Positions 37,240 through 49,054 of a stretch of DNA of 64,000 nucleotides are shown here, in pieces. Made by a program: the position numbers and the translations under genes. Source of the stretch: an uncultured Actinomycetes bacterium (GTDB lineage: Bacteria; Actinomycetota; Actinomycetes; Streptosporangiales; Streptosporangiaceae). How positions within the stretch are numbered: position 1 is the first letter of the stretch; every line of letters starts with the position of its first letter. Below the pieces are notes generated by a model. The model searched no databases. It was not told the DNA's origin and worked only from the letters and a program-made list of their open reading frames with translations. The stretch spans positions 132,925 through 196,924 of the forward strand of contig CAWIGE010000019.1 of NCBI GenBank assembly GCA_963835425.1. Reading direction: 5' to 3'.

Positions 37240-37585
37240 TCAGCTTGGCCCATGGCCGCGGGTCGCTGAGTTGGTGCCGCCAGGCTGCGGCTGCGTACTC
37301 GCTGGGTCGCGTCGCCAGGTCAGCGCCACGGTGAAGTTCGCCGTAGTGCTGACAGCAGCGATGAACGCCCCGGCCTCGGCGTGGAGGTCGAGGCCGAACT
37401 CGACGTGCACCTCGTCTGGTACCTCGGCGAGAGAGCGCAACTGCGTGATGACGCCTTCCACCGCAGGCTGGACGCGGCCAACCGCCTCTTCGAAGGTCTG
37501 CCGCGCCCGTTCAACTACTTCGGGCCCCTTCAGGCTGGCGCGTCACCGGGCCCGTGTGATGCCCGGTGACGTTGACCAGCACTGA
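37240..37585 (-). pseudogene. 3' part of a Trypco1-like (CU044_2847-family-like) gene interrupted by the IS; also carries a frameshift
   Basis: ..VLVNVTGHHTGPVTR / ASLKGPEVVERARQTFEEAVGRVQPAVEGVITQLRSLAEVPDEVHVEFGLDLHAEAGAFIAAVSTTANFTVALTW... The family call is from a recalled motif (PDEVxVEFGxKxxAEAGxxIAKxxxEANFxVxLTW). The frame changes at about 37525-37535. Confidence 0.6.
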
Positions 37586-37604
37586 TACGGCAGCTGTAGT
37601 TCGT
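37586..37604. repeat. Terminal inverted repeat of the IS (left end in window coordinates)
   Basis: tacggcagctgtagttcgt. Confidence 0.9.
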
Positions 37605-37609
37605 TGTGA

Positions 37610-38968
37610 TCATGGTGTTGTCTCGGCATAGGCGTTCCAGCGTTGGTGGGCTTGGCGGGCGCGGTGCTGGTGGCGGCGCCGCCAGGTGGACCAGTGCAGC
37701 CGGTGGGGCCGGTCTCGGTGGGGTGGTGGGATGACGGTGTCGCGCAAGAGCCGCAGCAGTTCCGGGATGGTGATCGGGATCAGCCCGGCGTCCGGGTCTG
37801 AGCCGGCGTCGTGCTGGCGCTGCACGGCGACGGCGACGGCGAGGTAGAGGTAGGCGAGCAGGCAGATCGCGGTCCAGCGGTGCCAGGACTTCCAGCGGAT
37901 GACCTGCCCGGCGTCCAGGCCGGTGGCTCTGCTTGGCTGAGCTGGTGATCTTCCTCGATACGCCACCTGGCCGACTGCGATGGCGATCAGCCGGGACAGC
38001 GGGACCGGCCCGGGTGTCCAGCACCGGTAGAAGGACAGCTTGCCGGTATAGCGGTGCCGCCGGACCAGCAGCACGCTGTGCCCGTCCTGGTGCCCGTCGG
38101 GGGTGTCGTCGCTGGTCACCTGGAGCATGGCCCAGTCGTAGTGCCGGGTGCCCTTGGTCCCGGACCCGGTGCGCATCCGGTGCCAGGCGCGGGCGGGAAT
38201 CAGCGGCACAGCTTGGGCCGCGGTCAGGGCGCGGCCCGAGCCGGCGGTGATGGCGTGGTTGGCGCGGACCGCCAGCACATAGCCCATGCCGCGCTGGCGG
38301 ATGCCGCGGCGCAGCTGGCGGCCGCCGTAGACCTCATCACCGGCCACGAAGGCGGCGCGGATCCCCGCGCGCATGCGCGCGGTCCAGCAGGCCGCCGGCC
38401 AGCTGCGGCTTGGTGGCGAACATCACCTCCTCCGGGACCCCGGCCAGCTCGCGGTGCTCCTCATCGCAGCGCAGCGCTTCGGGCAGGTACAGAGCCCGGC
38501 CGATCAGCGCGTGCCCGCGGCGGGTGGCATAGGTCAAGGTGACCGCCACCTGGCACAGCGCGATCCCGCCCACGGTGCCGCTGTACTGGCGGGCCGCGCC
38601 GGCCGCAGTCGGCTGAGGACTTCTCATCGGCGGTCTCATCCACGATCAGCACCGCATCCCCGTCATCGAGATGGCTGACCGCCCAGGCCGCCGCGGCGTC
38701 CAGGATCTGCTGGTCGTCCCAGACCGCCCGCGACAGCAGGTGCTGCAGCCGGTGCGGCCCGCGGTGCCCGGCCGCCTCGGCGATGGTCCAGCAGTTGTGA
38801 TCTTCCAGCTCCATCAGCAGCCCGCTGCACCATCTGGCTGCAGGACTGGCGGGTCTCCCGCCGGGGAAAGCACCCGGCCACCCGCCCGAGCAGATCCGCC
38901 AGCAGCGCCGACCGGGCATCATCAGATAGGGTGGCAGCAGCGGCTGCCGCGTCTTGATTGTGTCTCAC
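37610..38968 (-). pseudogene. IS701-family transposase gene, broken into at least 4 frames
   Basis: The pieces are MRHNQDAAAAAATLSDDARSALLADLLGRVAGCFPRRETRQS, ..LLMELEDHNCWTIAEAAGHRGPHRLQHLLSRAVWDD..AVLIVDETADEK, ..ARQYSGTVGGIALCQVAVTLTYATRRGHALIGRALYLPE..FATKPQLA and ..AFVAGDEVYGG..WHRWTAICLLAYLYLAV. An RWRIEEDHQ segment is readable only in a shifted frame. Confidence 0.8.
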
Positions 38969-39040
38969 AACTCGTCATGATCGCGGCAGCCGCACCTTTA
39001 TGCGGTCATCCTGCTGACCTGCACAAACAACCCGAAGATC

Positions 39041-39059
39041 ACGAACTACAGCTGCCGTA
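39041..39059. repeat. Terminal inverted repeat of the IS (right end in window coordinates)
   Basis: acgaactacagctgccgta is the exact reverse complement of 37586-37604. Confidence 0.9.
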
Positions 39060-39105
39060 ACTGAGCCTCCTGATTCCAGCGGGAATTCGACCAACTGTCC
39101 CATCG
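39060..39105 (-). pseudogene. 5' part of the IS-interrupted Trypco1-like gene
   Basis: The reverse strand reads ATG GGA CAG TTG GTC GAA TTC CCG CTG GAA TCA GGA GGC TCA GT = MGQLVEFPLESGGS. An RBS ggaagggag lies upstream. It joins in frame to 37585 once the IS and one TSD copy are removed. Confidence 0.65.
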
Positions 39106-39276
39106 CCACCACTCCCTTCCAGGCGATTCCCGGGCTCGCTGAGCGAGATCGGTGACCGCCACTTCAGGCCTAGAGAGAAAGAAACTAGCAGCGAGAATGG
39201 TTATAGGTCTGCGCATACCCGCAGGTCACAAGGGGGGAGTGGCGGAGTTGTCAGATGAAGGGCCTGCCCAACCAGA

Positions 39277-40852
39277 GTGGGCGGACGGGATCCGCGGCAG
39301 GAACAGCCAGTGACGGACACACCGCAGGAGAAGCCACCGCCAGAACGCGGCAAGGTCCAGTGGGGCGACATCCTGTCTGAGCTAATGTATTTGCTCCGTT
39401 ACATGCTTGGTATGGGGGTGATGCGGGCATCTGGACGGCCCCGGCACCCGGTCAGCGGCGGCGAGCCTCTTTATGCGCGTGCGGTGCTGGAAAGCGCGAA
39501 GATCGAAGAACGCTACTTCTACGAGCAGGAGATCTCCCGGAACCCGCACAGCAAGATGTTGCGCCGTCCAAAGGGGAAAATAGAACTCACGCTCCCCTAT
39601 GACGGAGATCGGTATTTCACCAGGCAAGCGTACACAGATATCACCCGTCTCTATAACCCCACCTATGGTGATGCCCGCGCGCTTGTCGGACACTTGGCGC
39701 TTACCGGCTACGGGCAGACGAACCTCGGCGGTCTGCTGGACCTAGGCGAGACCTACGGATCCATCCCGCTTAAGGTAGCTGTCCCGGCCGCTTCCGGCCA
39801 GCCTGCTGACTTGATAGCTGATCGCAGCAGCAGCGTCTTCAGCTGCGAGTACGAGCCGAGCACCGATCGGATCAAGGTCAGGCCGGTCACCGTCGAGATC
39901 GACCTGCTCGACCCCGATAGTTCCGGATTTTCTGCCCGTGAGGGTGAGGAGGGGACGGCCGAAGAGATCATGCAGCAGGTCAGCTTCCGGTCCGAACTGC
40001 TGCTCCGCATGAAGGTCTGGCTCCACGCTCCCGGTGCGCCGGATGGGGTCGTACCCGCGGAGGTGAAGAAGGTGACTGTTAGCTGGCCGACCATCACGTC
40101 CCTCAGGTCACTCAGCCTGACGGTGAACGGGGAGGATCACCCGGTCAGGTACAACCCCAAGGATCGCTGCCTCGAGTGGTTCAAGGTCTCGATGACCCTG
40201 AGCCCTGACGCACCTGCCGGAGACATGCAGACCTATACCAGCGGCGTAATGGAGTTGCGGATTCCGGAGCCGGGAGAGCTCTACCAGGAGCGTAACCTGA
40301 CGGGCACGGTAGAGGTGAGGATGGGCAAGCTCCTGTCCGGCATGGAGGCAAGGCTCTACAGCAGCGACCGGGTCTATTCGGCACCGGCCAAGGCTTAAGC
40401 TCCATACTTACATATCCACTGACTTTGACCTGATCCTAGGTGACGCCTTCGCTCGGCGGGAGCTCACGCCATACCAGCACCTCCACTTCGATGAAGTGAT
40501 ACCGAGCGAGATGCGGATAAGCGACATCAAGATCGCGTTGACCAACCGTGGCTTCAGGCTCACGCATGAATGGCTAGATAGTGGCACGGAGGGCCGGTGG
40601 CTGCGGGCGGAGCGGTTCGAGGGCCCAGACCGGATGGTACTCGTTCTCTACATCCAGGGGATATTGCATCAGGCGAGGCGAGATTCACGGATCCCCGGCG
40701 GCATCACCTACCGGAGCAACCTGGATAGCGGCGAGATACGAATCTACGTCCGTGGTCAGCTGAAAAGGAAGAGCCAGCCAGTTATCCATGAGATGAACGC
40801 GCTGCGCAGGGCTCTCCGCGAGCGTTTCGACCACCTCCCGGCTAGACGCTGA
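39277..40852 (+). CDS. Island gene 1: large uncharacterised protein, paralogue of island gene 2 (one apparent frameshift at about 40385-40400 joins track ORFs 39277..40398 and 40496..40852)
   Basis: The second ORF has no RBS, and its frame stays open back to 40382 (..LKLHTYISTDFDLILGDAFARRELTPYQHLHFDEVIPSEM..). The joined protein aligns collinearly with gene 2 (see findings). Lower-GC codon usage. Confidence 0.55.
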
Positions 40853-40876
40853 TGAAGGAAGCTGGAGGGCAGCCTG

Positions 40877-42585
40877 ATGGATGGCACGCCCAAAGAGCGC
40901 GCTCCGCGGGCGCGCTGCTATAAGTGTGGATCATCTCAGATCACCCGCATGTGCCACCATTGCGGGAGAATTGGCTGCAGCGCGCATGTCACGCCAACCC
41001 GCAAGCTCTGGGGCCGGCCGCTTAGCCGGGAACTGCGGGGCCTGGACATGGACAAGAAGGCTGCTTATCACTGCCCCGATTGCGCTCATCTCGGCAGTCC
41101 CGTGCTGACGGTTGGCGTCATAGGGGTGATAGTGGCACTGGCGGGTGCCGTTGTCCTCTGGCTGAGTTTCTGGGCCGGCCTGGCCATGGTTCTGCTGGGC
41201 GCAGCAATAGCGATTGGAAGCTATATCGCAGGCCGCCGCAGAGAGGCAAAGCGAGAGAGATTGCCGCTTCCAGTCCTGCCGAGACTGGAAGAACTCAGCG
41301 TGAGAGAAGAACTCAGTGGCAGGGTCATACTCTGGCCGAGCGGTGATTACGACCAGCCCACACCTGATCCGGTACAGGGTGAACTAACAGCTAATCTGGT
41401 GCTCGGTAAGACCGACCGTCGCCGTCTCGAGGGGTACGTACACAGGCACCGGATGCCACAAGGTAGCGACGTTAAGTTCTGTGCGGGATTCCTGGTTCTC
41501 CAGGGCCAGGTCGGCAGCAGTTTGTCACGCATTTTTCCCGACCTATCTATCCCGCTCGATGGCACGACCTCCGACTATCTGGTGTTTGATGTGGAACGTC
41601 ATCGCGCATCGAGTTCATATCGTATCGACTACACTTATGATCTGATAGCAGGCCGGGAAGTTAAGAAGGTTCCGGTCTGGATCACACCTGCTATTGCCCC
41701 CAGATCCGACAAGCGTGGACTGGAGCTGCAGATTCAGTGGGTTGATATGGGTAACCAGGAGCACAGCTTTCGTTGGAGAACGTTGAGTCACTGGAATTGA
41801 GGGTTCCAGTGGAATGGGGGGATGTTGTAGACTTCAACAAGCCCGTCCTATCGAGCCTCCGGGCAAACGAAGAGGACGGTCAAGCGCGAGGCTCATTGAA
41901 TGGGTACAGTTGCGGCCCAGCGAGCAGGAGAACCAGCGCAAGCGGCTTGATTTTGTTGTACAGTTTGAAGACAAGATCAAAGAGGGAGATGCCATATCTG
42001 GCCGCCTCGATATGGTCTTCAAAGGAGCCATCTCGGGGATCGAGCGGATCCATCTCTACAGTCCCCTTGGGGATCGGCGGATACATTCATCTGCCGCGAA
42101 CGTTACAACCCATGTGATGCTGGACTTCGAGCTCAGCCTGACGAGCACCCGCTATCAAGACGTCAGGTTGGTTCCTGATCGCAGGATGTCGGAAGATCGG
42201 GATAGGGGCGAGGCCAGAGAATTCCCGGCAGTGATACCGAACGACAGATACCGTCATCAGACTCACGAATGCCCTGAGCGAGCAGGGATACTACATAAAG
42301 CGGATCATAGAGAACCCGCGGAGAAGTGGCCCCCGGGCGAATCTGGTCCGTCGTTACTGGGACATCGCGGGTCGGCATTATGCGGGTGTCTACCCAATAG
42401 ATTTCCATATCATCCTGACCGGTGACGAGATTCAACGCGGTGGAATACGCGCACATAGTGGTACGACGAAGGCGTGCGTAACTGTGCAAGGATCATACGC
42501 GAACCCGGATATGCAAAATCGCGTCGAGAGGGCATGGGACAGGCTATACGACCTGATAGTGAGCACGCTGGAGTCACTGTCGTGA
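40877..42585 (+). CDS. Island gene 2: double Zn-ribbon + 2 TM helices + beta-rich region + C-terminal domain shared with gene 1 (three apparent frameshifts at about 41770, 41888 and 42245)
   Basis: RBS ggaggg precedes ATG 40877. CYKCG..MCHHCGRIGC..YHCPDC, then VLTVGVIGVIVALAGAVVLWLSFWAGLAMVLLGAAIAIGSYIAG. A sensible reading continues through frames 41773.. and 41814.., then a third frame to the TGA at 42583-42585 (..IRLTNALSEQGYYIKR..RVERAWDRLYDLIVSTLESLS*). Confidence 0.6.
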
Positions 42586-42738
42586 CCCGCACAGTCCGGG
42601 GCGGCTCGACCGGATCCACCAGATGGCTGGGAAGAACCCGTTGGCGGCCTGGCCGTCGCTGGCAGGCAAAATGACTCCGGCCCGGATCACGTCCCGAGGA
42701 ACACCGCGGTGGCTAGGGCGGCGATGATAGGAGGCTTC

Positions 42739-42963
42739 ATGTCCTGGGAGTGCGCTGAATGCAATGTCAAGGAATCGGCCGGCAGGATGATCGACGCCAT
42801 CTGCCATCATTGTGGCAAGCCGCTGTGCCGTGATGACCGGATTGAGATCGCTGACAATGCCTTCAGCAGTGGTGGGTCAACTGGCCCAACGGCGATCCAC
42901 TGTCGTGCCTGCAGGCGGAAGCATCATGCCAGTGCCGTGGCGCTGGGCGTGGCAGAGCGATGA
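42739..42963 (+). CDS. Island gene 3: small stand-alone Zn-ribbon protein homologous to the N-terminus of gene 2
   Basis: RBS aggagg (42729-42734) sits 4 nt before ATG 42739. The protein reads MSWECAECN..ICHHCGKPLC..IHCRACRRKHH. Its stop overlaps the gene 4 start (ATGA at 42960-42963). Confidence 0.6.
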   Translation: MSWECAECNVKESAGRMIDAICHHCGKPLCRDDRIEIADNAFSSGGSTGPTAIHCRACRRKHHASAVALGVAER

Positions 42964-44247
42964 TCGAAGTGACGCTCCGGCAGGCGGAGCTTCTCGTCGG
43001 CGAGGACGCGGACGTCGTCGTGCAACTCGCGAACACCGGGCCGGGGGCATGCACGCACATCTTTTTCACGCTGACGTTGCCGGGCGAGATCATGCTGCTG
43101 CACGGCCAGGACGAGATAGAGGTGGACCGCCTGGAACCGGGGGAAACTGCCACCCGCACCTTGCGTGTCCGGCCTCTTAGCGCCGCCCGGTGCCGGGTCA
43201 CGAGCACGAACTTCTCGTACCGGGATCGCTACGGGTTGACATGCCGCCGGGACCGTGACTTCCGAGCGGTGCTTGTTACGACGGTGCCCGAGCGGCGCGG
43301 GCCGGAGCCGGGAGCGCGGCCACCCGCCCTGAAGACGACTTTCACCGTCAACCTCGTCACGGCCGAGCTGCCTTACGGTGAGTGGACTTTACTGGAGGGT
43401 CGCATCACCAACTCGGGCGATACGGAGCTGGGGAACGTTGAGCTCAGCATCTCAGGGCCGGTAGCCCCCGGCAAACGGGGGCGCAAGGCCAGGCTCGGTT
43501 CGGTGCGCGCCGGCAGCCGAGGCTTCGTTTGGATTCTTCGTATGCGCAGATGGGGCCGCGGGCACGGTGCCAGTTTACCTCGACCTCTCTTTCGTTGATA
43601 AGGCCAGGCGCTACGCTCGGGCGCTTGTGCGGACGGTGCAGGTCGCCAAGAAGAATCAGCCATCACCTTCGGCGCTGACAGAATCTGTTGTCCTGTTTTT
43701 TGCTGCCAATCCTGTCGATACCGAGGTGTTGCGTACAGGCAAGGAATTCATGGTGATCGAGAGGGCCCTGGAGAGCGGCCGCGGGAAGGCCAGGATAAAG
43801 ATACGCCCTTCGCTTGCCACGCGAGCCAGAGATATTAGCCGAGAGCTACTGCAGGTAAAGCCGTGGATTGTTCATTTCGCGGGCCACGGCGGAGGACTGG
43901 AGGAGAGTTTCGCAGTTGAAGACGAGGATGGTTACGCGCGCGTTGTTCCGACGGGTGGCTTGTCAAGTCTTTTCGAAATAGCCGGGAAAGGTGTTGAGTG
44001 CGTCATTATAAATGCTTGCTCTACCGTGGGACTGGCGCAGGCTCTGTCTCAGCACGTTGATTACGTGATCGCGATGAGCCAGCCTATCTATGATTGGGAT
44101 GCAATCGAATTCAGCAGGGCCTTTTACCAGGCGCTGGCGGCCGACTACTCGATCAGGTCCGCCTTCGACCTAGGCCTTGCGGAGCTGGAGATGTTGTCGG
44201 ACGGTGCGGCCTATGACATTCCAAAAATCCTAGGCCGCCAGGGCTGA
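42960..44247 (+). CDS. Island gene 4: two CARDB-like beta-sandwich repeats + C-terminal minimal CHAT/caspase-like peptidase domain (one apparent frameshift at about 43515-43526)
   Basis: Two repeats follow the pattern V..G....V.V.L.N.G.......L..P.....L.PGE. After ..RLGSVRAGS the sensible frame becomes EASFGFFVCADGAAGTVPVYLDLSFVD.. (track ORF 43567..). The CHAT-like core is VVLFFAANPVDT..WIVHFAGHG (His codon 43885-43887)..VECVIINACS (Cys codon 44017-44019)..YVIAMSQPI.D..AIEFSRAFYQAL. Confidence 0.65.
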
Positions 44248-44308
44248 CCCGGCTGTCCTGCCCGTTGGGTGGCCAAGATCCGCAGCTGTTGCCGCGCAGG
44301 TAGCCGCC

Positions 44309-45826
44309 TCAGGCCGTGATGACGTGGTACTCCGATACGTCCAGGTGACGGGTGGCACGCCGGAACCCGAGCGTGGAGCCGGGCCACAGCGTCGTGTTGC
44401 GCCCGGCGGCGTTGAGGTACCAGCTCACGCAGCCGCCGGTGGCCCACACCGAGGACGCCATCCGCCGCTCGACGCCGGCGCACCAGCGCTCCTGCGCGCC
44501 CCGTCGCGCGTCGAGGGCGGCAGCCCCGGTCCGGTCCAGCGTCGCGAGATAATCCAGGATGTAGTGGAGCTGGGACTCGATGATGTGGACCATCGAGCTG
44601 TGGCCGAGCCCGGTGTTGGGCCCGATGACCAGGCACAGGTTGGGGAAGCGCGGCACGGTGGTGCCCCGCAGCGCCCGCATGTCGCCGTCCCAGGCCTGGG
44701 CCAGGGTCACGCCATCGGCTCCGGTGATGCGCCCGGCAATGGGCATGTCCACCGCGCGGAACCCGGTGGCCAGAATGATCACGTCCACATCGTGGGCGGT
44801 GCCGTCCCCGGCGATCACGGTGTGGCCGTCCACCCTGGCGAGTCCGCCGCCGACCACCTCCACGTTCGGCCGCGTCAGCGCCGGATAGAAGTCGCTGGAC
44901 AGCAGGATCCGCTTGCAGCCCATCACGTAGCGCGGTGTCAGCTTGGCGCGCAGGACGGGGTCGGGCACGGACTTGGCCAGGTGGCGCTCCGCGATGCGCT
45001 GTGCGGCCTTCAGCATCCCCGGCCGTGCGACGAAGGCGGCGAACGCGGGCTCGCGGACCAGATAATTCCCCAGGCGGGCCAGGCGCTGGGCCGGAGGAAG
45101 GTGGCGGTAGACCCACTTTTCCGGCCCGGTGATGACCCGGTCACGGCGCGGCAGCACCCAGGCCGGGGTGCGCTGGAACAGCACCAGGCGGGCCGCCGTG
45201 GGCTGGATCTCGGGCACGATCTGGATCGCGCTTGCCCCGGTGCCGACCACCGCGACCCGCTTGCCGTCGAGACGGGCGCCGTGGTCCCAGCGTGCTGAGT
45301 GGAACACCTCCCCGGGGAAATCCGCGAGCCCGGGAACGTCGGGAAGGCGCGGTTCGGAGAGCGGGCCCGCCGCCGAGATGAGGACGTCGGCGGTCAGGCC
45401 AGTCTGGGCAGCCGGGTTGGCGTGGAGGTCTGGCCCGGCAGGGGAGTCCGTCGGCCCGGTGCGGGCGATTCGCAGCCGCCAGCGCGCCAGGCCGGCGTCC
45501 CAGCGGGCCTCGGTGACTTCCGCCCCGAGCCGCAGATGGCCGCGCAGGCGGTAGCGGTCGGTGATCTCTTCCAGGTAGTCCCAGATCTCTGGCTGCCGGG
45601 AGAAGCTGTGGGTCCAGCCGGGGTTCGGCGCGAACGAGAACGAGTACAGGTGCGACGGGATGTCGCAGGCGCACCCGGGATAGGTGTTGTCCCGCCAGGT
45701 GCCGCCCACCGAGACCGCCCGCTCCAGGATGACGAAGTCGGTCACGCCCGCCTGCCGCAGCCGGACGCCCGCACCGAGCCCGCCGAAGCCAGCGCCGATG
45801 ATGGCGACGCGCACATGTTCAGGCAC
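44309..45826 (-). CDS. Flavin-dependent (Baeyer-Villiger/FMO-type) monooxygenase
   Basis: ..VAIIGAGFGGLGAG.. (FAD-binding), ..GGTWRDNTYPGCACD.., FxGxxxHxxxW-like FPGEVFHSARWDH, and a second Rossmann motif VAVVGTGASAIQ. The start could instead be ATG 45901. Confidence 0.85.
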   Translation of the reverse strand: MPEHVRVAIIGAGFGGLGAGVRLRQAGVTDFVILERAVSVGGTWRDNTYPGCACDIPSHLYSFSFAPNPGWTHSFSRQPEIWDYLEEITDRYRLRGHLRLGAEVTEARWDAGLARWRLRIARTGPTDSPAGPDLHANPAAQTGLTADVLISAAGPLSEPRLPDVPGLADFPGEVFHSARWDHGARLDGKRVAVVGTGASAIQIVPEIQPTAARLVLFQRTPAWVLPRRDRVITGPEKWVYRHLPPAQRLARLGNYLVREPAFAAFVARPGMLKAAQRIAERHLAKSVPDPVLRAKLTPRYVMGCKRILLSSDFYPALTRPNVEVVGGGLARVDGHTVIAGDGTAHDVDVIILATGFRAVDMPIAGRITGADGVTLAQAWDGDMRALRGTTVPRFPNLCLVIGPNTGLGHSSMVHIIESQLHYILDYLATLDRTGAAALDARRGAQERWCAGVERRMASSVWATGGCVSWYLNAAGRNTTLWPGSTLGFRRATRHLDVSEYHVITA

Positions 45827-46008
45827 GGTGTCAGTGTCCTGGATCCAGGGCCCCGGCGGCGAGCCCACGCGGCACCCATGGATGTATCGGGCGGAACCCA
45901 TGGATGTGTAAAGCAAAACCCATCGATGTATCAAGCCATCAAGGTGGCGCTCCTATCCATGTTGGGACGGCCGTGACACGGCATCGGGGAGGCAGGGGGA
46001 GTTCGGCG

Positions 46009-47451
46009 ATGACCTTTGATGACGCCGGGAGCGCTGCGATGCGTGCTGACCTGGTAGATGTCCGGGCCATCCGTGAGCATTTCGTGTTCCCCAAGCTGGG
46101 CCGGGTGGTGACGAACAACGCGGCGAGTACACAGCCGCCGGCCGAGTTGCTGGAGCTGTACGCCTCACTGGGGCCCGGCTATGAGAACGTCCACCGCGGC
46201 CAGTCCAGCGCCTCCCAGGCGATGACCGCGCGGTTTGAGGAGTCCTACGACACCATCGCCCGGTTCATCGGCGCGCCCAGCCGGGCCTGTATCGCCCTGT
46301 ACCGGAACACGACCGAGGCGATCAACGCGGTCATGTACGCGCTGCTGACCGAGTTCCGCGACGGCGACAACGTGGTCACCACGCTGATGGAGCACAACTC
46401 CAACTACGTCCCCTGGTACGGCCTGTGCCGGGAGATCCTGCCGCGCCTGGGGCGGCGGGTCGAATACCGGCTGGCCAGGTTCGACCCGGTGACCGGGGAG
46501 CTGGACCTGGCCCACCTGGCGTCGCTGATCGATGGGCGGACCAAGCTGGTGTGCTGCACCGGGGCGTCGAATTTTTTGGGCACTCGGCCCCCTCTCGATC
46601 AGGTGCGGGCGCTGGCCGGTGCCAGCGGGTACCGCCAGCCGAACGGGGAGCGCCGGTCGTATCTGCTGGTGGATGGGGCGCAGCTGGTCCCCGGGTCGTT
46701 TGTTGATGTGCGGACGCTGGATGTGGATTTTTTGGCGTTCTCGTTCCACAAGCTGCTCGCCCCGTTCGGCGTAGGCGTCCTGTACGCCAAGCAGCATCTG
46801 CTGGAGGGCATGCTGCCGTTCCTGTACGGCGGCGACATGATCGCCGAAGGGCGCGTGCTGCCCGACCTGGTGGAGTACAACGCGCTGCCGTGGAAGTACG
46901 CGGCCGGCACGCCCAACATCCTGGGGGCGATCGTCTCCGGCCAGACGGTGCGCATGCTGATGGACCTGGCGCTGTCCCCCCGGCGGCCGCTCTACTACGG
47001 CACGGGCAAGGTGATCGAGCGCGCGGCTGTGCGGGAGGCGATGGGGCGGGTGGCAGCGTGGAACCGGCAGCTGACCGCCCGCGCGCTCGACGGGCTGGCC
47101 GCCATCCCCGGCATCACCATCTACGGGCCCCGCGACCCGGCGCAGCGTACGTCGCTGGTGGCGTTCAACCTGGCCGGCCGCGACCCGGTAAGCGTGGCCC
47201 AGGCGCTGGACCGGGCCGGGATCGAGGCCCGGGCCGGCTGCCACTGCGCCACCCTGGCCCACCACACGCTCAAACTCGACCCGCCCGCCAGCTGCCGGCT
47301 GAGCTTCTACCTCTACAACACCCCCACCGAGATCGACCGGGCCGTCGCCGCGGTGGCCGCCATCGCCACCGGCCACCACGAACACACGGTCCCGTGGTAC
47401 CGGCGCCTCCGCTGGCCGGCCCTCGTGCCGGTCACGGTGGCACCGGCATGA
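46009..47451 (+). CDS. Class V aminotransferase / cysteine-desulfurase-like PLP enzyme
   Basis: ..NNAASTQPP..NVHRGQSSASQ..YRNTTEAINAV..DFLAFSFHKLLAPFGVGVLY (PLP lysine)..AGCHCA... Start taken at ATG 46009 inside the track ORF. Confidence 0.85.
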   Translation: MTFDDAGSAAMRADLVDVRAIREHFVFPKLGRVVTNNAASTQPPAELLELYASLGPGYENVHRGQSSASQAMTARFEESYDTIARFIGAPSRACIALYRNTTEAINAVMYALLTEFRDGDNVVTTLMEHNSNYVPWYGLCREILPRLGRRVEYRLARFDPVTGELDLAHLASLIDGRTKLVCCTGASNFLGTRPPLDQVRALAGASGYRQPNGERRSYLLVDGAQLVPGSFVDVRTLDVDFLAFSFHKLLAPFGVGVLYAKQHLLEGMLPFLYGGDMIAEGRVLPDLVEYNALPWKYAAGTPNILGAIVSGQTVRMLMDLALSPRRPLYYGTGKVIERAAVREAMGRVAAWNRQLTARALDGLAAIPGITIYGPRDPAQRTSLVAFNLAGRDPVSVAQALDRAGIEARAGCHCATLAHHTLKLDPPASCRLSFYLYNTPTEIDRAVAAVAAIATGHHEHTVPWYRRLRWPALVPVTVAPA

Positions 47452-49054
47452 CCGTGCTGGACGCCGGCAGCAGCACCGCCGAGGGTCGTTCCGTGGTGTG
47501 GTAGATCGCGATGTCGGTGGGGGCCAGGCGCGTCCCGGTTGCGAGCGGCTCGCCGGTGCTGCGGGCGAAGCGCGGGAAGGCGCCGCCGCTGAGCTGGAGC
47601 CGGAGCCGGTGCCCCGCTGCGAAGCGGTATGCGATGGGGCTCATCACGACCGTGGCGCCGGCTTGACTGGGGGAGGCCAGGGAGAGGCGGCGGATGCCGT
47701 CGCAGACGTTCCGGGACTTGCCCTCCGGGTCGACATCGCAGAGACGGGCGAAGACATGGGCGTGCCGGTTGCTGACGTCCAGCTGCAGGTCCACCTGGAC
47801 GGCGCCGAGGATCTCCAGCGACGCAGCGAGCGGCGGACCGGTGAACGTCAGAACGTCGGGACGCGCCTCGAGAGCCGTGTTGACCTGCTGGCCGGACCGG
47901 TGGGAGAGCACCTGCCCGCCGACCGAGGGAGTCGGGTCAACGGGGTCATAACGCAGCGGCGTCGCGGGCGATTCACCCGGGGGATCGGGGCTGAGGCTTC
48001 CGCCACCGTGGAGATACCAGGCCTGGCCCGGTGAGGGCGGCGGCCAGTCCGGCAGGTCCCGCCACTCGCCGCAGCCGCCAACGTGGATGCGCACCGGCAC
48101 CGGGCGCGCAGTGGGCGGGTCGGCGCAGAGATGCCTGCGCAGCCAGCCGAGTGAGTCGCCGAACACCGCGGTGCCGCCCTCGTTCATCATCGAGGTGTGT
48201 GTCCAGGGCCCGATGAGCAGCCTGATCTCTTGCCCGTTCGCGCGAAGCGCATGGTACTGGGCGACGGTCTGGTCGAGCAGGATGTCGTACCAGCCGCCGA
48301 CCAGGGCCGTTGGCACAGTTATCCGGCCGAGGGCCGGGCTGAGGTCGATCTGCTGCCAGTAGGGATCGCCCCGTTCGCTCTGGCTCAGCCAGTTCAGTGA
48401 GTCCGGCAAATGGGCGCCGAAGGCTTTCCGGAAGGCGTCGGTAAGCGGCAGCGTGCGGGTGGTGCGCCGGTACCGGAGCTGGAGCCGCGTGGCGGCGGCC
48501 ATCATCCGGAGCATCCCCCGCTGCCAGTAGGCAGTCCCGATCCCGCCGATCAGGGCGGTCTCGAGCGCGAACACGCCGCCGGGGTAGAAGCCGTCATAGG
48601 GACAGTGCATGCCAACCTGCACCACCATGGCCTTCAGCTCGGGGGGTGCCTCGGCGGCCAGCGCCAGCTGGGTGTAGCCCAGGTAACTCGGGCCGACCAT
48701 GCCGAGCATGCCGTTGAACCAGCCCTGGCGCCGGAGCCAGGCCACGGCCGCCAGGCCGTCCGCGCCCTCGTCATGGCACCAGCGGAACGTGCCCCCCGAG
48801 CCAGCGGTTCCCCGGCAGCTCTGAATGACCACATGGAATCCCTGCTCCGCGAAGGCGACCCCGTACAGCGCGTCCCAGGGGAAACCCCGCCCGTAGGGCG
48901 AGCGGAGCAGGACGGTCGGGCAGGCCTCCGCGGTCACCGGCAGGTAGTGGTCGGTGAGCAGCGTGCTGCCGTCGTCGGCGGGCACCCGCAGCGCGGGCTC
49001 CCACGCGACCTTGAACCGGCCCCGGGGCAGCTGGCGCGCGAGGCGCCGCATCAT
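47432..49054 (-). CDS. CocE/NonD-family (S15 X-Pro dipeptidyl-peptidase-like) hydrolase
   Basis: ..VLLLRSPYGRG..GFHVVIQSCRGTAGSGG.., nucleophile region ..MVGPSYLGY.., and a C-terminal beta-sandwich. Start taken at ATG 49054. Confidence 0.85.
   Translation of the reverse strand: MMRRLARQLPRGRFKVAWEPALRVPADDGSTLLTDHYLPVTAEACPTVLLRSPYGRGFPWDALYGVAFAEQGFHVVIQSCRGTAGSGGTFRWCHDEGADGLAAVAWLRRQGWFNGMLGMVGPSYLGYTQLALAAEAPPELKAMVVQVGMHCPYDGFYPGGVFALETALIGGIGTAYWQRGMLRMMAAATRLQLRYRRTTRTLPLTDAFRKAFGAHLPDSLNWLSQSERGDPYWQQIDLSPALGRITVPTALVGGWYDILLDQTVAQYHALRANGQEIRLLIGPWTHTSMMNEGGTAVFGDSLGWLRRHLCADPPTARPVPVRIHVGGCGEWRDLPDWPPPSPGQAWYLHGGGSLSPDPPGESPATPLRYDPVDPTPSVGGQVLSHRSGQQVNTALEARPDVLTFTGPPLAASLEILGAVQVDLQLDVSNRHAHVFARLCDVDPEGKSRNVCDGIRRLSLASPSQAGATVVMSPIAYRFAAGHRLRLQLSGGAFPRFARSTGEPLATGTRLAPTDIAIYHTTERPSAVLLPASSTVMPVPP

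Follow-up and report, generated by a model that had tools for sequence, protein, structure and literature searches.

A bacterial gene pair with a predicted mu-homology-like fold in a four-gene cassette with swappable CHAT or TIR output

The mu-homology domain is an all-beta fold of about 270 amino acids (aa), built of two interlocked beta-sandwich subdomains, and its eukaryotic representatives bind cargo or partner motifs (YxxPhi, DPF, WxxF) and/or acidic lipids. To our knowledge, the domain has until now been seen as an innovation of eukaryotes that belongs to their vesicle-coat machinery. Here we describe two adjacent genes of an uncultured actinomycete of the family Streptosporangiaceae, whose products contain a beta-rich region with a mu-homology-like predicted fold. 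The two genes, called gene 1 and gene 2 (families G1 and G2), lie at 39277-42585 of a stretch of 64,000 nucleotides (nt) that is called the window hereafter (positions 132,925 to 196,924 of contig CAWIGE010000019.1, assembly GCA_963835425.1). The G1-G2 pair forms the constant centre of a conserved and as yet unnamed bacterial cassette of four genes, whose other members are a small Zn-ribbon protein (gene 3) and an output protein (gene 4) with an exchangeable CHAT or TIR domain.

On its output side, the cassette can be compared with two kinds of described systems. According to a 2025 preprint, Pepco is a small protein of Actinobacteria and cyanobacteria encoded beside serine or cysteine proteases, and cleavage of its C-terminal tail by the protease turns it into an active pore toxin of the beta-barrel type (Evans et al., bioRxiv 10.1101/2025.11.14.688446). 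The name Trypco1 goes back to the description of a domain that co-occurs with trypsin in conflict systems (Kaur et al. 2020, PMC7159879). In the window, too, a caspase-like cysteine protease is encoded beside a Pepco/Trypco1 protein of about 115-130 aa in an actinobacterial island, and the logic of sensor, protease and latent pore toxin fits. However, the described modules fuse the protease to its sensor, which is a STAND ATPase, an FGE or a peptidoglycan-binding domain (bioRxiv 10.1101/2025.11.14.688446), whereas the presumed sensor here is a separate mu-homology-like pair together with a Zn-ribbon protein. The second kind comprises multi-gene conflict systems of multicellular bacteria with caspase/CHAT or TIR domains, namely the ternary and CATRA-type systems (Kaur, Burroughs, Iyer and Aravind), the type III-E Craspase and SAVED-CHAT. 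The cassette shares with them the exchange of CHAT and TIR on a constant docking module, the enrichment in Actinomycetota, Cyanobacteriota and Chloroflexota, and the neighbourhood of TCAD9 and toxin-antitoxin genes, but it has no NTPase (STAND, MoxR-vWA or GTPase), CRISPR effector, SAVED or cyclic-nucleotide component.

Genes 1 and 2 are each a single gene, the former interrupted by one frame break and the latter by three. Gene 1 occupies 39277..40849 of the forward strand and encodes about 524 aa when it is read across a break near 40363. Gene 2 follows on the same strand at 40877..42585 and encodes about 568 aa when it is read across breaks near 41752, 41888 and 42246. In a three-frame translation of 39000-43000, gene 1 runs in frame 1 over 39277-40395 and then in frame 2 to 40849, and gene 2 runs in frame 2 from 40877 to about 41770, in frame 1 to about 41880, in frame 0 to about 42250 and in frame 1 again to the stop codon at 42583-42585. 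An earlier note on this DNA, made from the sequence alone, had joined the open reading frames (ORFs) 39277..40398 and 40496..40852 into one gene, and all peptide blocks cited there are contained in this translation. The joining was borne out by the homologues: the joined gene 1 retrieves 120 proteins, mostly of 480-580 aa, the closest of which cover 97-99% of the query in one ORF, and the nearest relative, P0001, shows 83% identity over 99% of the query, also in a single ORF. Homologues with the two halves as separate genes, which the note had named as contrary evidence, did not appear, since all close homologues are encoded by an uninterrupted ORF that continues across the position of the window's break. 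The joined gene 2 retrieves 88 proteins, with P0121 at the top (569 aa, 97% identity, 100% coverage). P0121 is encoded on a metagenome contig, L001, which is 96.6% identical in DNA to window 39060-45852 and encodes all four cassette genes uninterrupted (513, 569, 74 and 428 aa). When the window and L001 are aligned at the base level, single-base differences are seen where the frames change, near 40363, 41752, 41888, 42246 and 43507.

The gene order of the cassette was read in 11 further distinct loci, from Kibdelosporangium, Lentzea, Pseudonocardia-like and other actinobacterial metagenome contigs, a metagenome-assembled genome (MAG) of Anaerolineales and a Crocosphaera MAG, and thus from Actinomycetota, Chloroflexota and Cyanobacteriota. 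In all 11 of these, a gene-1 relative stands directly 5' of a gene-2 relative, and a Zn-ribbon protein of 60-160 aa comes after G2 (again 11 of 11, including uncalled genes recovered by tblastn). The fourth gene is present and complete in nine of the 11 loci; contig L010 ends just past the Zn-ribbon gene, and no effector-type gene was seen in L012. Its product begins with a CARDB/TRAP-beta-like beta-sandwich and has a lineage-dependent end, which is a CHAT protease in actinobacterial loci, a TIR_2 domain (3.4e-14) in the Anaerolineales MAG locus (L007) and a low-complexity, coiled, non-enzymatic tail in Crocosphaera. A profile of the beta-sandwich part of the CHAT proteins matches the TIR protein at 4.9e-32 and the cyanobacterial protein at 1.4e-42. 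Because the beta-sandwich is thus homologous across the CHAT, TIR and non-enzymatic versions, it can be regarded as one putative docking module with interchangeable output domains. The evidence for effector swapping comes from L007, with its TIR domain, and from L003, and a search with the beta-sandwich adaptor for further effector types returned only 19 close CHAT-bearing relatives.

Genes 1 and 2 themselves are ancient, remote paralogues that share a core of about 410 aa, made up of the beta-rich region and the C-terminal domain. The earlier note had proposed that the two proteins align collinearly over at least 250 aa, and this stands at the level of the families but not for the direct pair. 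The gene pieces of the window match each other with BLASTP E values of at least 0.13, and their intact stand-ins, P0001 and P0121, with E=0.18 and with Smith-Waterman z values of 1.5-1.9 above shuffles. The note had regarded such a lack of pairwise significance as contrary to paralogy; it holds literally for this pair and is overturned by profile-profile comparison with controls. Family alignments were made of 40 gene-1 relatives (A1) and 41 gene-2 relatives (A2), and hhalign aligned the two with a probability of 95.5% and E=1.6e-8 over 408 collinear columns, A1 positions 61-531 corresponding to A2 positions 138-590. Controls with reversed profiles gave E values of 0.12-0.4, and mismatched-domain controls, in which the beta region of one family was set against the C-terminal domain of the other, gave 0.15-0.18. 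The beta regions alone align at E 1.5e-7 over 272 columns and the C-terminal domains alone at E 3.4e-4 over 124 columns, in keeping with the proposal that each protein ends in an alpha/beta domain common to both. In BLASTP comparisons of 40x41 cross-family pairs the lowest E value is 1.6e-6, and several pairs reach 1e-5 to 1e-6 in the same register, and a hidden Markov model (HMM) of either family matches members of the other at E about 1e-5 to 1e-6. The hhalign register recovers the motifs …LEWxxV…, …SGxExxLYS…, …DFxLxL… and …VIPxxxxxxxLxxALxxxG[FY]… together with three C-terminal blocks; the blocks aligned in the note agree with it, except that the first one (VKKVTVSWP / VESLELRVPVEW) was offset by about 10 residues. 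Since the window lineage's own pair scores non-significantly, the paralogy can be demonstrated only by family-level methods. Chance similarity, or convergent composition of two beta-rich proteins, would account for these pairwise scores and for an identity of only about 17%. It would leave unexplained the distance between the profile-profile result and its controls, the cross-family pairs that agree in register, and the agreement of two independently predicted structures in domain order and in top structural matches, and we regard it as very improbable.

For the structural comparison, AlphaFold2 models of P0001 (gene 1; mean predicted local distance difference test score, pLDDT, 79.6; predicted template-modelling score, pTM, 0.67) and P0121 (gene 2; pLDDT 88.3, pTM 0.74), built on the alignments A1 and A2, were used. 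In the first model, a disordered N-terminus and one helix are followed by a mu-homology-like double beta-sandwich (about 39490-40460) and by the C-terminal alpha/beta domain (about 40460-40849). In gene 2, a double Zn-ribbon (about 40916-41090) and a two-helix transmembrane hairpin (about 41100-41250) precede the mu-homology-like double beta-sandwich (about 41265-42180), and the modelled C-terminal alpha/beta domain extends over about 42205-42582. The Zn-ribbon is rich in Cys and His, and the hydrophobic helices of the model lie at residues 75-94 and 98-125; this hairpin would place both ends of the protein in the cytoplasm. Gene 1 is soluble. Both models show about 17 beta strands over about 300 residues, followed by a compact beta-alpha-beta4 unit that closes with a long helix.

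Searched with Foldseek against the PDB, the best 40 matches of gene 1 and the best 20 matches of gene 2 were all mu-homology domains, namely those of AP2 mu2, AP1, AP3 and AP4 mu, delta-COP, FCHo1, SGIP1 and Syp1. Their E values range from 1e-5 to 1e-9 (best 1.5e-8 for gene 1 and 1.8e-9 for gene 2) with a probability of 1.00, and they include complexes with peptides. The next fold class, which consists of two-domain adhesins, integrins and Cys-loop receptors, first appears at E>=1e-4. Because two independent models give the same Foldseek answer, the beta-rich region of both families is called mu-homology-like in predicted fold. Identity in the structural alignments is 8-15%, and the root-mean-square deviation (rmsd) of 7-9 A for the isolated domains suggests another angle between the two subdomains than in mu-homology domains. 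Like the mu-homology domain (Pfam Adap_comp_sub, PF00928, / muHD, PF10291), the beta region of G1 and G2, of about 300 aa, is predicted to have two beta-sandwich subdomains, with about 17 strands in all, and its matches come from five eukaryotic families; also like mu-homology proteins, G1 and G2 are predicted to be placed beside a membrane. Unlike these, they are bacterial, belong to an operon with a Zn-ribbon gene and a CHAT/TIR gene, and have no adaptor-complex partners. The order of domains differs as well: in AP mu a longin domain precedes the mu-homology domain, whereas in G1 and G2 the mu-homology-like part precedes an alpha/beta domain and is itself preceded by a helix or by the Zn-ribbon and hairpin, not by a longin or F-BAR domain.

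The earlier note had recognised neither the beta-rich region nor the terminal domain. For sequence libraries this holds, but the predicted fold of the beta region does resemble the mu-homology domain. Neither PF00928 / PF10291 nor any other Pfam family was matched at E<=1 by the 41 gene-2 relatives, scanned one by one, or by the gene-1 and gene-2 pieces of the window, the pieces standing for gene 1. NCBIfam and PADLOC hold no family for G1 or G2, and searches of PDB sequence profiles with A1, A2 and a combined C-terminal alignment (A3) gave only chance matches to designed proteins. Nothing above noise was found by Foldseek among the viral structures of BFVD. Foldseek gave no match that would favour a gasdermin-like, MACPF or other pore-former reading of G1 and G2, and this candidate was dropped. 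In the literature searched, no prokaryotic mu-homology domain was found, which does not exclude its existence elsewhere. In the wider field of trafficking proteins, one recent report speaks of prokaryotic relatives of the COMMD proteins (PMC13392464).

The terminal alpha/beta domain of about 125 aa is common to both families (alignment A3). Its beta-alpha-beta4 unit and long helix might recall the START / Bet v 1 (PYR/PYL) helix-grip fold, and the last 165 or so residues of the gene-2 model gave weak Foldseek matches to PYR/PYL abscisic-acid receptors (probability about 0.9, E 4e-3 to 9e-3, TM-score 0.29-0.34). The gene-1 model gave no START/PYL match in Foldseek. With matches for gene 2 only and no sequence signal, the resemblance to START / Bet v 1 is treated as a lead that is too weak to adopt. 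At the extreme C-terminus, gene-1 relatives end in a near-invariant …RERFDRLPARR (alignment A1; family-wide ...RERFDxLPARR; window 40800-40849), which, judged from its conservation, could be a docking or protease-recognition tail.

When the A1 profile was searched against 1.84 billion representative proteins, 532 clusters of 50% identity fell within the gene-1 family at E<=1e-3, of which 451 also passed E<=1e-10. The best 150 clusters are mostly of 450-620 aa and match most of the profile, the shorter ones matching part of it only, and no extra fused domains are evident among these 150. Named sources of the family are genera of Pseudonocardiaceae, Streptosporangiaceae, Anaerolineales and Crocosphaera. 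One gene-1 relative of 400 aa (L005:6770-7972), with a partial HMM match of 1.7e-61 and a weak Pfam match to NTP_transf_2 (3.9e-4), could reflect either a different architecture or an error of gene calling.

Gene 3 (42739..42963, forward strand), detected by tblastn and the A2 HMM, encodes a free-standing double Zn-ribbon of 74 aa, and its stop codon overlaps the start of gene 4 (42960-42963). Although the ORF finder listed the GTG at 42709 as its start, translation most likely begins at the ATG at 42739 (MSWECAEC…), in agreement with all relatives. Gene 3 and the Zn-ribbon at the N-terminus of gene 2 are homologues, as seen from matches of the A2 HMM to the small proteins (E 1e-7 to 1e-9) and from secondary matches in tblastn; gene 3 also has weak Pfam matches to Zn-fingers and a marginal PADLOC match to HEC-08 (E 0.006-0.011). 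Gene 4 (42960..44247, forward strand, one frame change near 43507) encodes two CARDB/TRAP-beta-like beta-sandwich domains and a CHAT (caspase-like) protease, with Pfam matches to CARDB (3.1e-5) and CHAT (2.5e-7) and a PADLOC match to SAVED_CHAT/chat at about 1e-7. The HFAGHG and INAC motifs, as expected of an intact catalytic dyad or triad, are present both in the window and in L001, and the frame break of the window lies upstream of the CHAT domain. Only the two beta-sandwich domains, and no sensor domain, are fused to the CHAT protease.

Gene 2 of this lineage has lost its end. Most gene-2 relatives have 640-670 aa and carry a conserved helical C-terminal tail, …LGLLDEAxxHGRISxxxYxxMRxxAEQQL. 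An identification of this tail as SHOCT was dropped, as there was no Pfam match even at E<=10. When window 42583-42738 was compared with L013:9330-9660 and L014:9040-9350, it was found that the window and L001 share the premature stop at 42583-42585, where L014 has a Cys codon, and a deletion of about 105 nt relative to L013 and L014, which eliminates the helical tail. Linker remnants (PPDGWEEPVGGLA…) downstream of the stop remain in frame into the Zn-ribbon gene. Because of this shared stop and deletion, gene 2 of the window/L001 lineage is truncated even where it is "intact".

On the other side of gene 1, and divergent from it, lies the Pepco/Trypco1 gene (37240..39105, reverse strand), which is split by an insertion sequence (IS) at 37586..39059. 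Trypco1 of Pfam is matched at 1.2e-14 by the fragment in the window and at 6.6e-23 by the gene of L001. A Trypco1/Pepco gene is found divergently upstream of gene 1 in four loci, the window, L001, L013 and L014, and it is uninterrupted in the last three; since the flanking genes of L013 differ, Pepco seems to travel with the cassette. The transposase of the IS is encoded on the minus strand and falls into at least three frame pieces. L001 lacks the IS, and the blastn blocks on either side of the insertion share 5 bp, as would be expected of a target-site duplication. A search for an intact copy on plasmids found only relatives of 70-74% identity, on Streptomyces plasmids. The G+C content, mostly 68-79% in the window, falls to 57-63% across 39-44 kb, against about 70% in the flanks.

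Neighbours of the cassette at other loci include PIN toxin genes, one of them with a PhdYeFM antitoxin, as well as TCAD9 and Sa_NUDIX genes. In Kibdelosporangium phytohabitans (CP012752.1; L002:12949-17515), the cassette is followed by genes for a 380-aa protein, a Sa_NUDIX protein, a 119-aa protein and a TCAD9 protein of more than 1350 aa, and these genes resemble a further conflict system within that island.

The copy in the window has either been recently inactivated or been mis-sequenced. Compared with L001, the reading frames of three of the four cassette genes are broken, at five single bases in all, and the Pepco gene is interrupted as well. Ratios of nonsynonymous to synonymous substitution (dN/dS) between the window and L001 are 0.59, 0.23, 0.14 and 0.25 for genes 1-4 and 0.25 for a flanking FMO gene, and values of 0.14-0.59 argue against a long neutral decay of the cassette. 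The FMO-like monooxygenase gene is intact in the window (541 aa, 44309-45934) and split into 332 + 197 aa in L001:6339-8017 by a single-base difference near window 45434. Thus, both assemblies contain frame-breaking indels, that of L001 in the FMO gene and those of the window in the cassette genes. Because of the low dN/dS, the frame pieces of the IS transposase itself and this indel in L001, an indel-type assembly error is judged somewhat more likely than real pseudogenisation. Over window 39060-47474, synonymous divergence (dS) from L001 is 0.02-0.08 in the cassette and 0.16 in the FMO gene, and the aminotransferase region is 86.7% identical. Because the cassette has diverged less from L001 than its flanks have, this hints that the island was exchanged or swept more recently than the flanks. 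The cassette of this genome might instead be a dead relic, in which neither the frame breaks nor the IS are artefacts and no functional product is encoded. The number of breaks against so similar an intact relative, the IS in the Pepco gene and the lineage's shared loss of the gene-2 tail would all fit this, and we take it seriously without favouring it, since the dN/dS values exclude long decay and the broken transposase and the broken FMO gene of L001 fit assembly errors.

As for the function of the family, it is in our estimate slightly better than an even chance that the G1-G2 pair is a membrane-anchored sensor or scaffold of a conflict cassette, probably an anti-phage one acting by abortive infection. 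A conflict role is preferred over housekeeping because of the swapping of output domains, the toxin partner, the low-G+C island with its IS, the toxin, TCAD9 and Sa_NUDIX neighbours, and the patchy spread over three phyla. Since the pair is paralogous and always adjacent, G1 and G2 may form a hetero-oligomer, which the hairpin of gene 2 would tether to the membrane. The mu-homology-like surfaces are candidate recognisers of a peptide or protein signal. The Zn-ribbon, which occurs both fused to gene 2 and as a free copy, would together with the effector's beta-sandwich couple the effector to this complex, and activation would then release CHAT proteolysis or TIR activity. In the window's subclade, the likely CHAT substrate would be Pepco/Trypco1, a pore toxin presumably licensed by removal of its tail. 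Several observations weigh against this proposal. The target-normalised TM-scores to mu-homology domains are moderate (0.26-0.56, mostly 0.3 or above, with an rmsd of 7-19 A), so that the fold similarity could be convergent. PADLOC-DB v2.0.0 gave no match for G1 or G2, and only the generic chat/SAVED_CHAT for gene 4. The cassette has no ATPase, nuclease or nucleotide-signalling part that would carry a signal to the effector. Pepco is absent from L002, L006, L008, L009, L011 and L012, that is, from most loci outside the subclade, and even the "intact" relative L001 may be impaired, having lost the conserved tail of gene 2. It seems possible but doubtful that G1 and G2 are true prokaryotic homologues of the mu-homology domain, which would use the same peptide-binding surface to sense invaders or damage at the membrane and release a caspase-like or TIR effector.

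The same features admit two other accounts. The cassette might have no immune role and instead provide a scaffold at the membrane through which proteolysis or signalling is regulated during development, at the envelope or in cell-cell interaction of filamentous or multicellular bacteria, the G1-G2 pair binding endogenous peptide motifs. Most of the lineages that have the family are multicellular or filamentous (Pseudonocardiaceae, Streptosporangiaceae, Anaerolineales and cyanobacteria), the cassettes of Lentzea and Kibdelosporangium lie among ordinary chromosomal genes, and the motif binding of eukaryotic mu-homology domains, with the peptide complexes among the PDB matches, would suit such a role. 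However, a constant adaptor with CHAT in some loci and TIR in others is what conflict systems, more than housekeeping pathways, typically show, and the adjacency of Pepco, the island with its IS, the patchy distribution and the neighbouring toxin-antitoxin and TCAD9 genes point the same way, so that we think such a scaffold unlikely. Alternatively, G1 and G2 might be latent effectors or substrates that CHAT cleaves into a toxic or membrane-active fragment, as with gasdermin, EACC1 and Pepco. Pairs of a protease and a latent effector are common, gene 2 is membrane-anchored in the model, and the ...LPARR tail of gene 1 could be the recognition site of a protease. Yet G1 and G2 also occur with a TIR or a non-enzymatic fourth protein, where the cassette has no protease at all; Foldseek returned no gasdermin, MACPF or other pore-former, and the subclade already has a dedicated protease-activated toxin in Pepco. 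A role as latent effector thus seems improbable, and the sensor or scaffold of a conflict cassette remains the reading that we prefer.

With these results, a defined family with a testable role, a conserved partner and a conserved operon takes the place of two "hypothetical" ORF fragments. As a defence system, if it is one, the cassette would provide a new sensor module, made of paired mu-homology-like proteins and a Zn-ribbon adaptor, that works with no NTPase or nucleotide messenger, and it would be another natural context for a protease-activated Pepco pore toxin. If the similarity in fold reflects descent, it would bear on the origin of the coat and adaptor components of eukaryotes. Should G1 and G2 be true mu-homology homologues that sense signals, they would represent a new class of bacterial immune sensors and a candidate bacterial root of the adaptor-complex domain.

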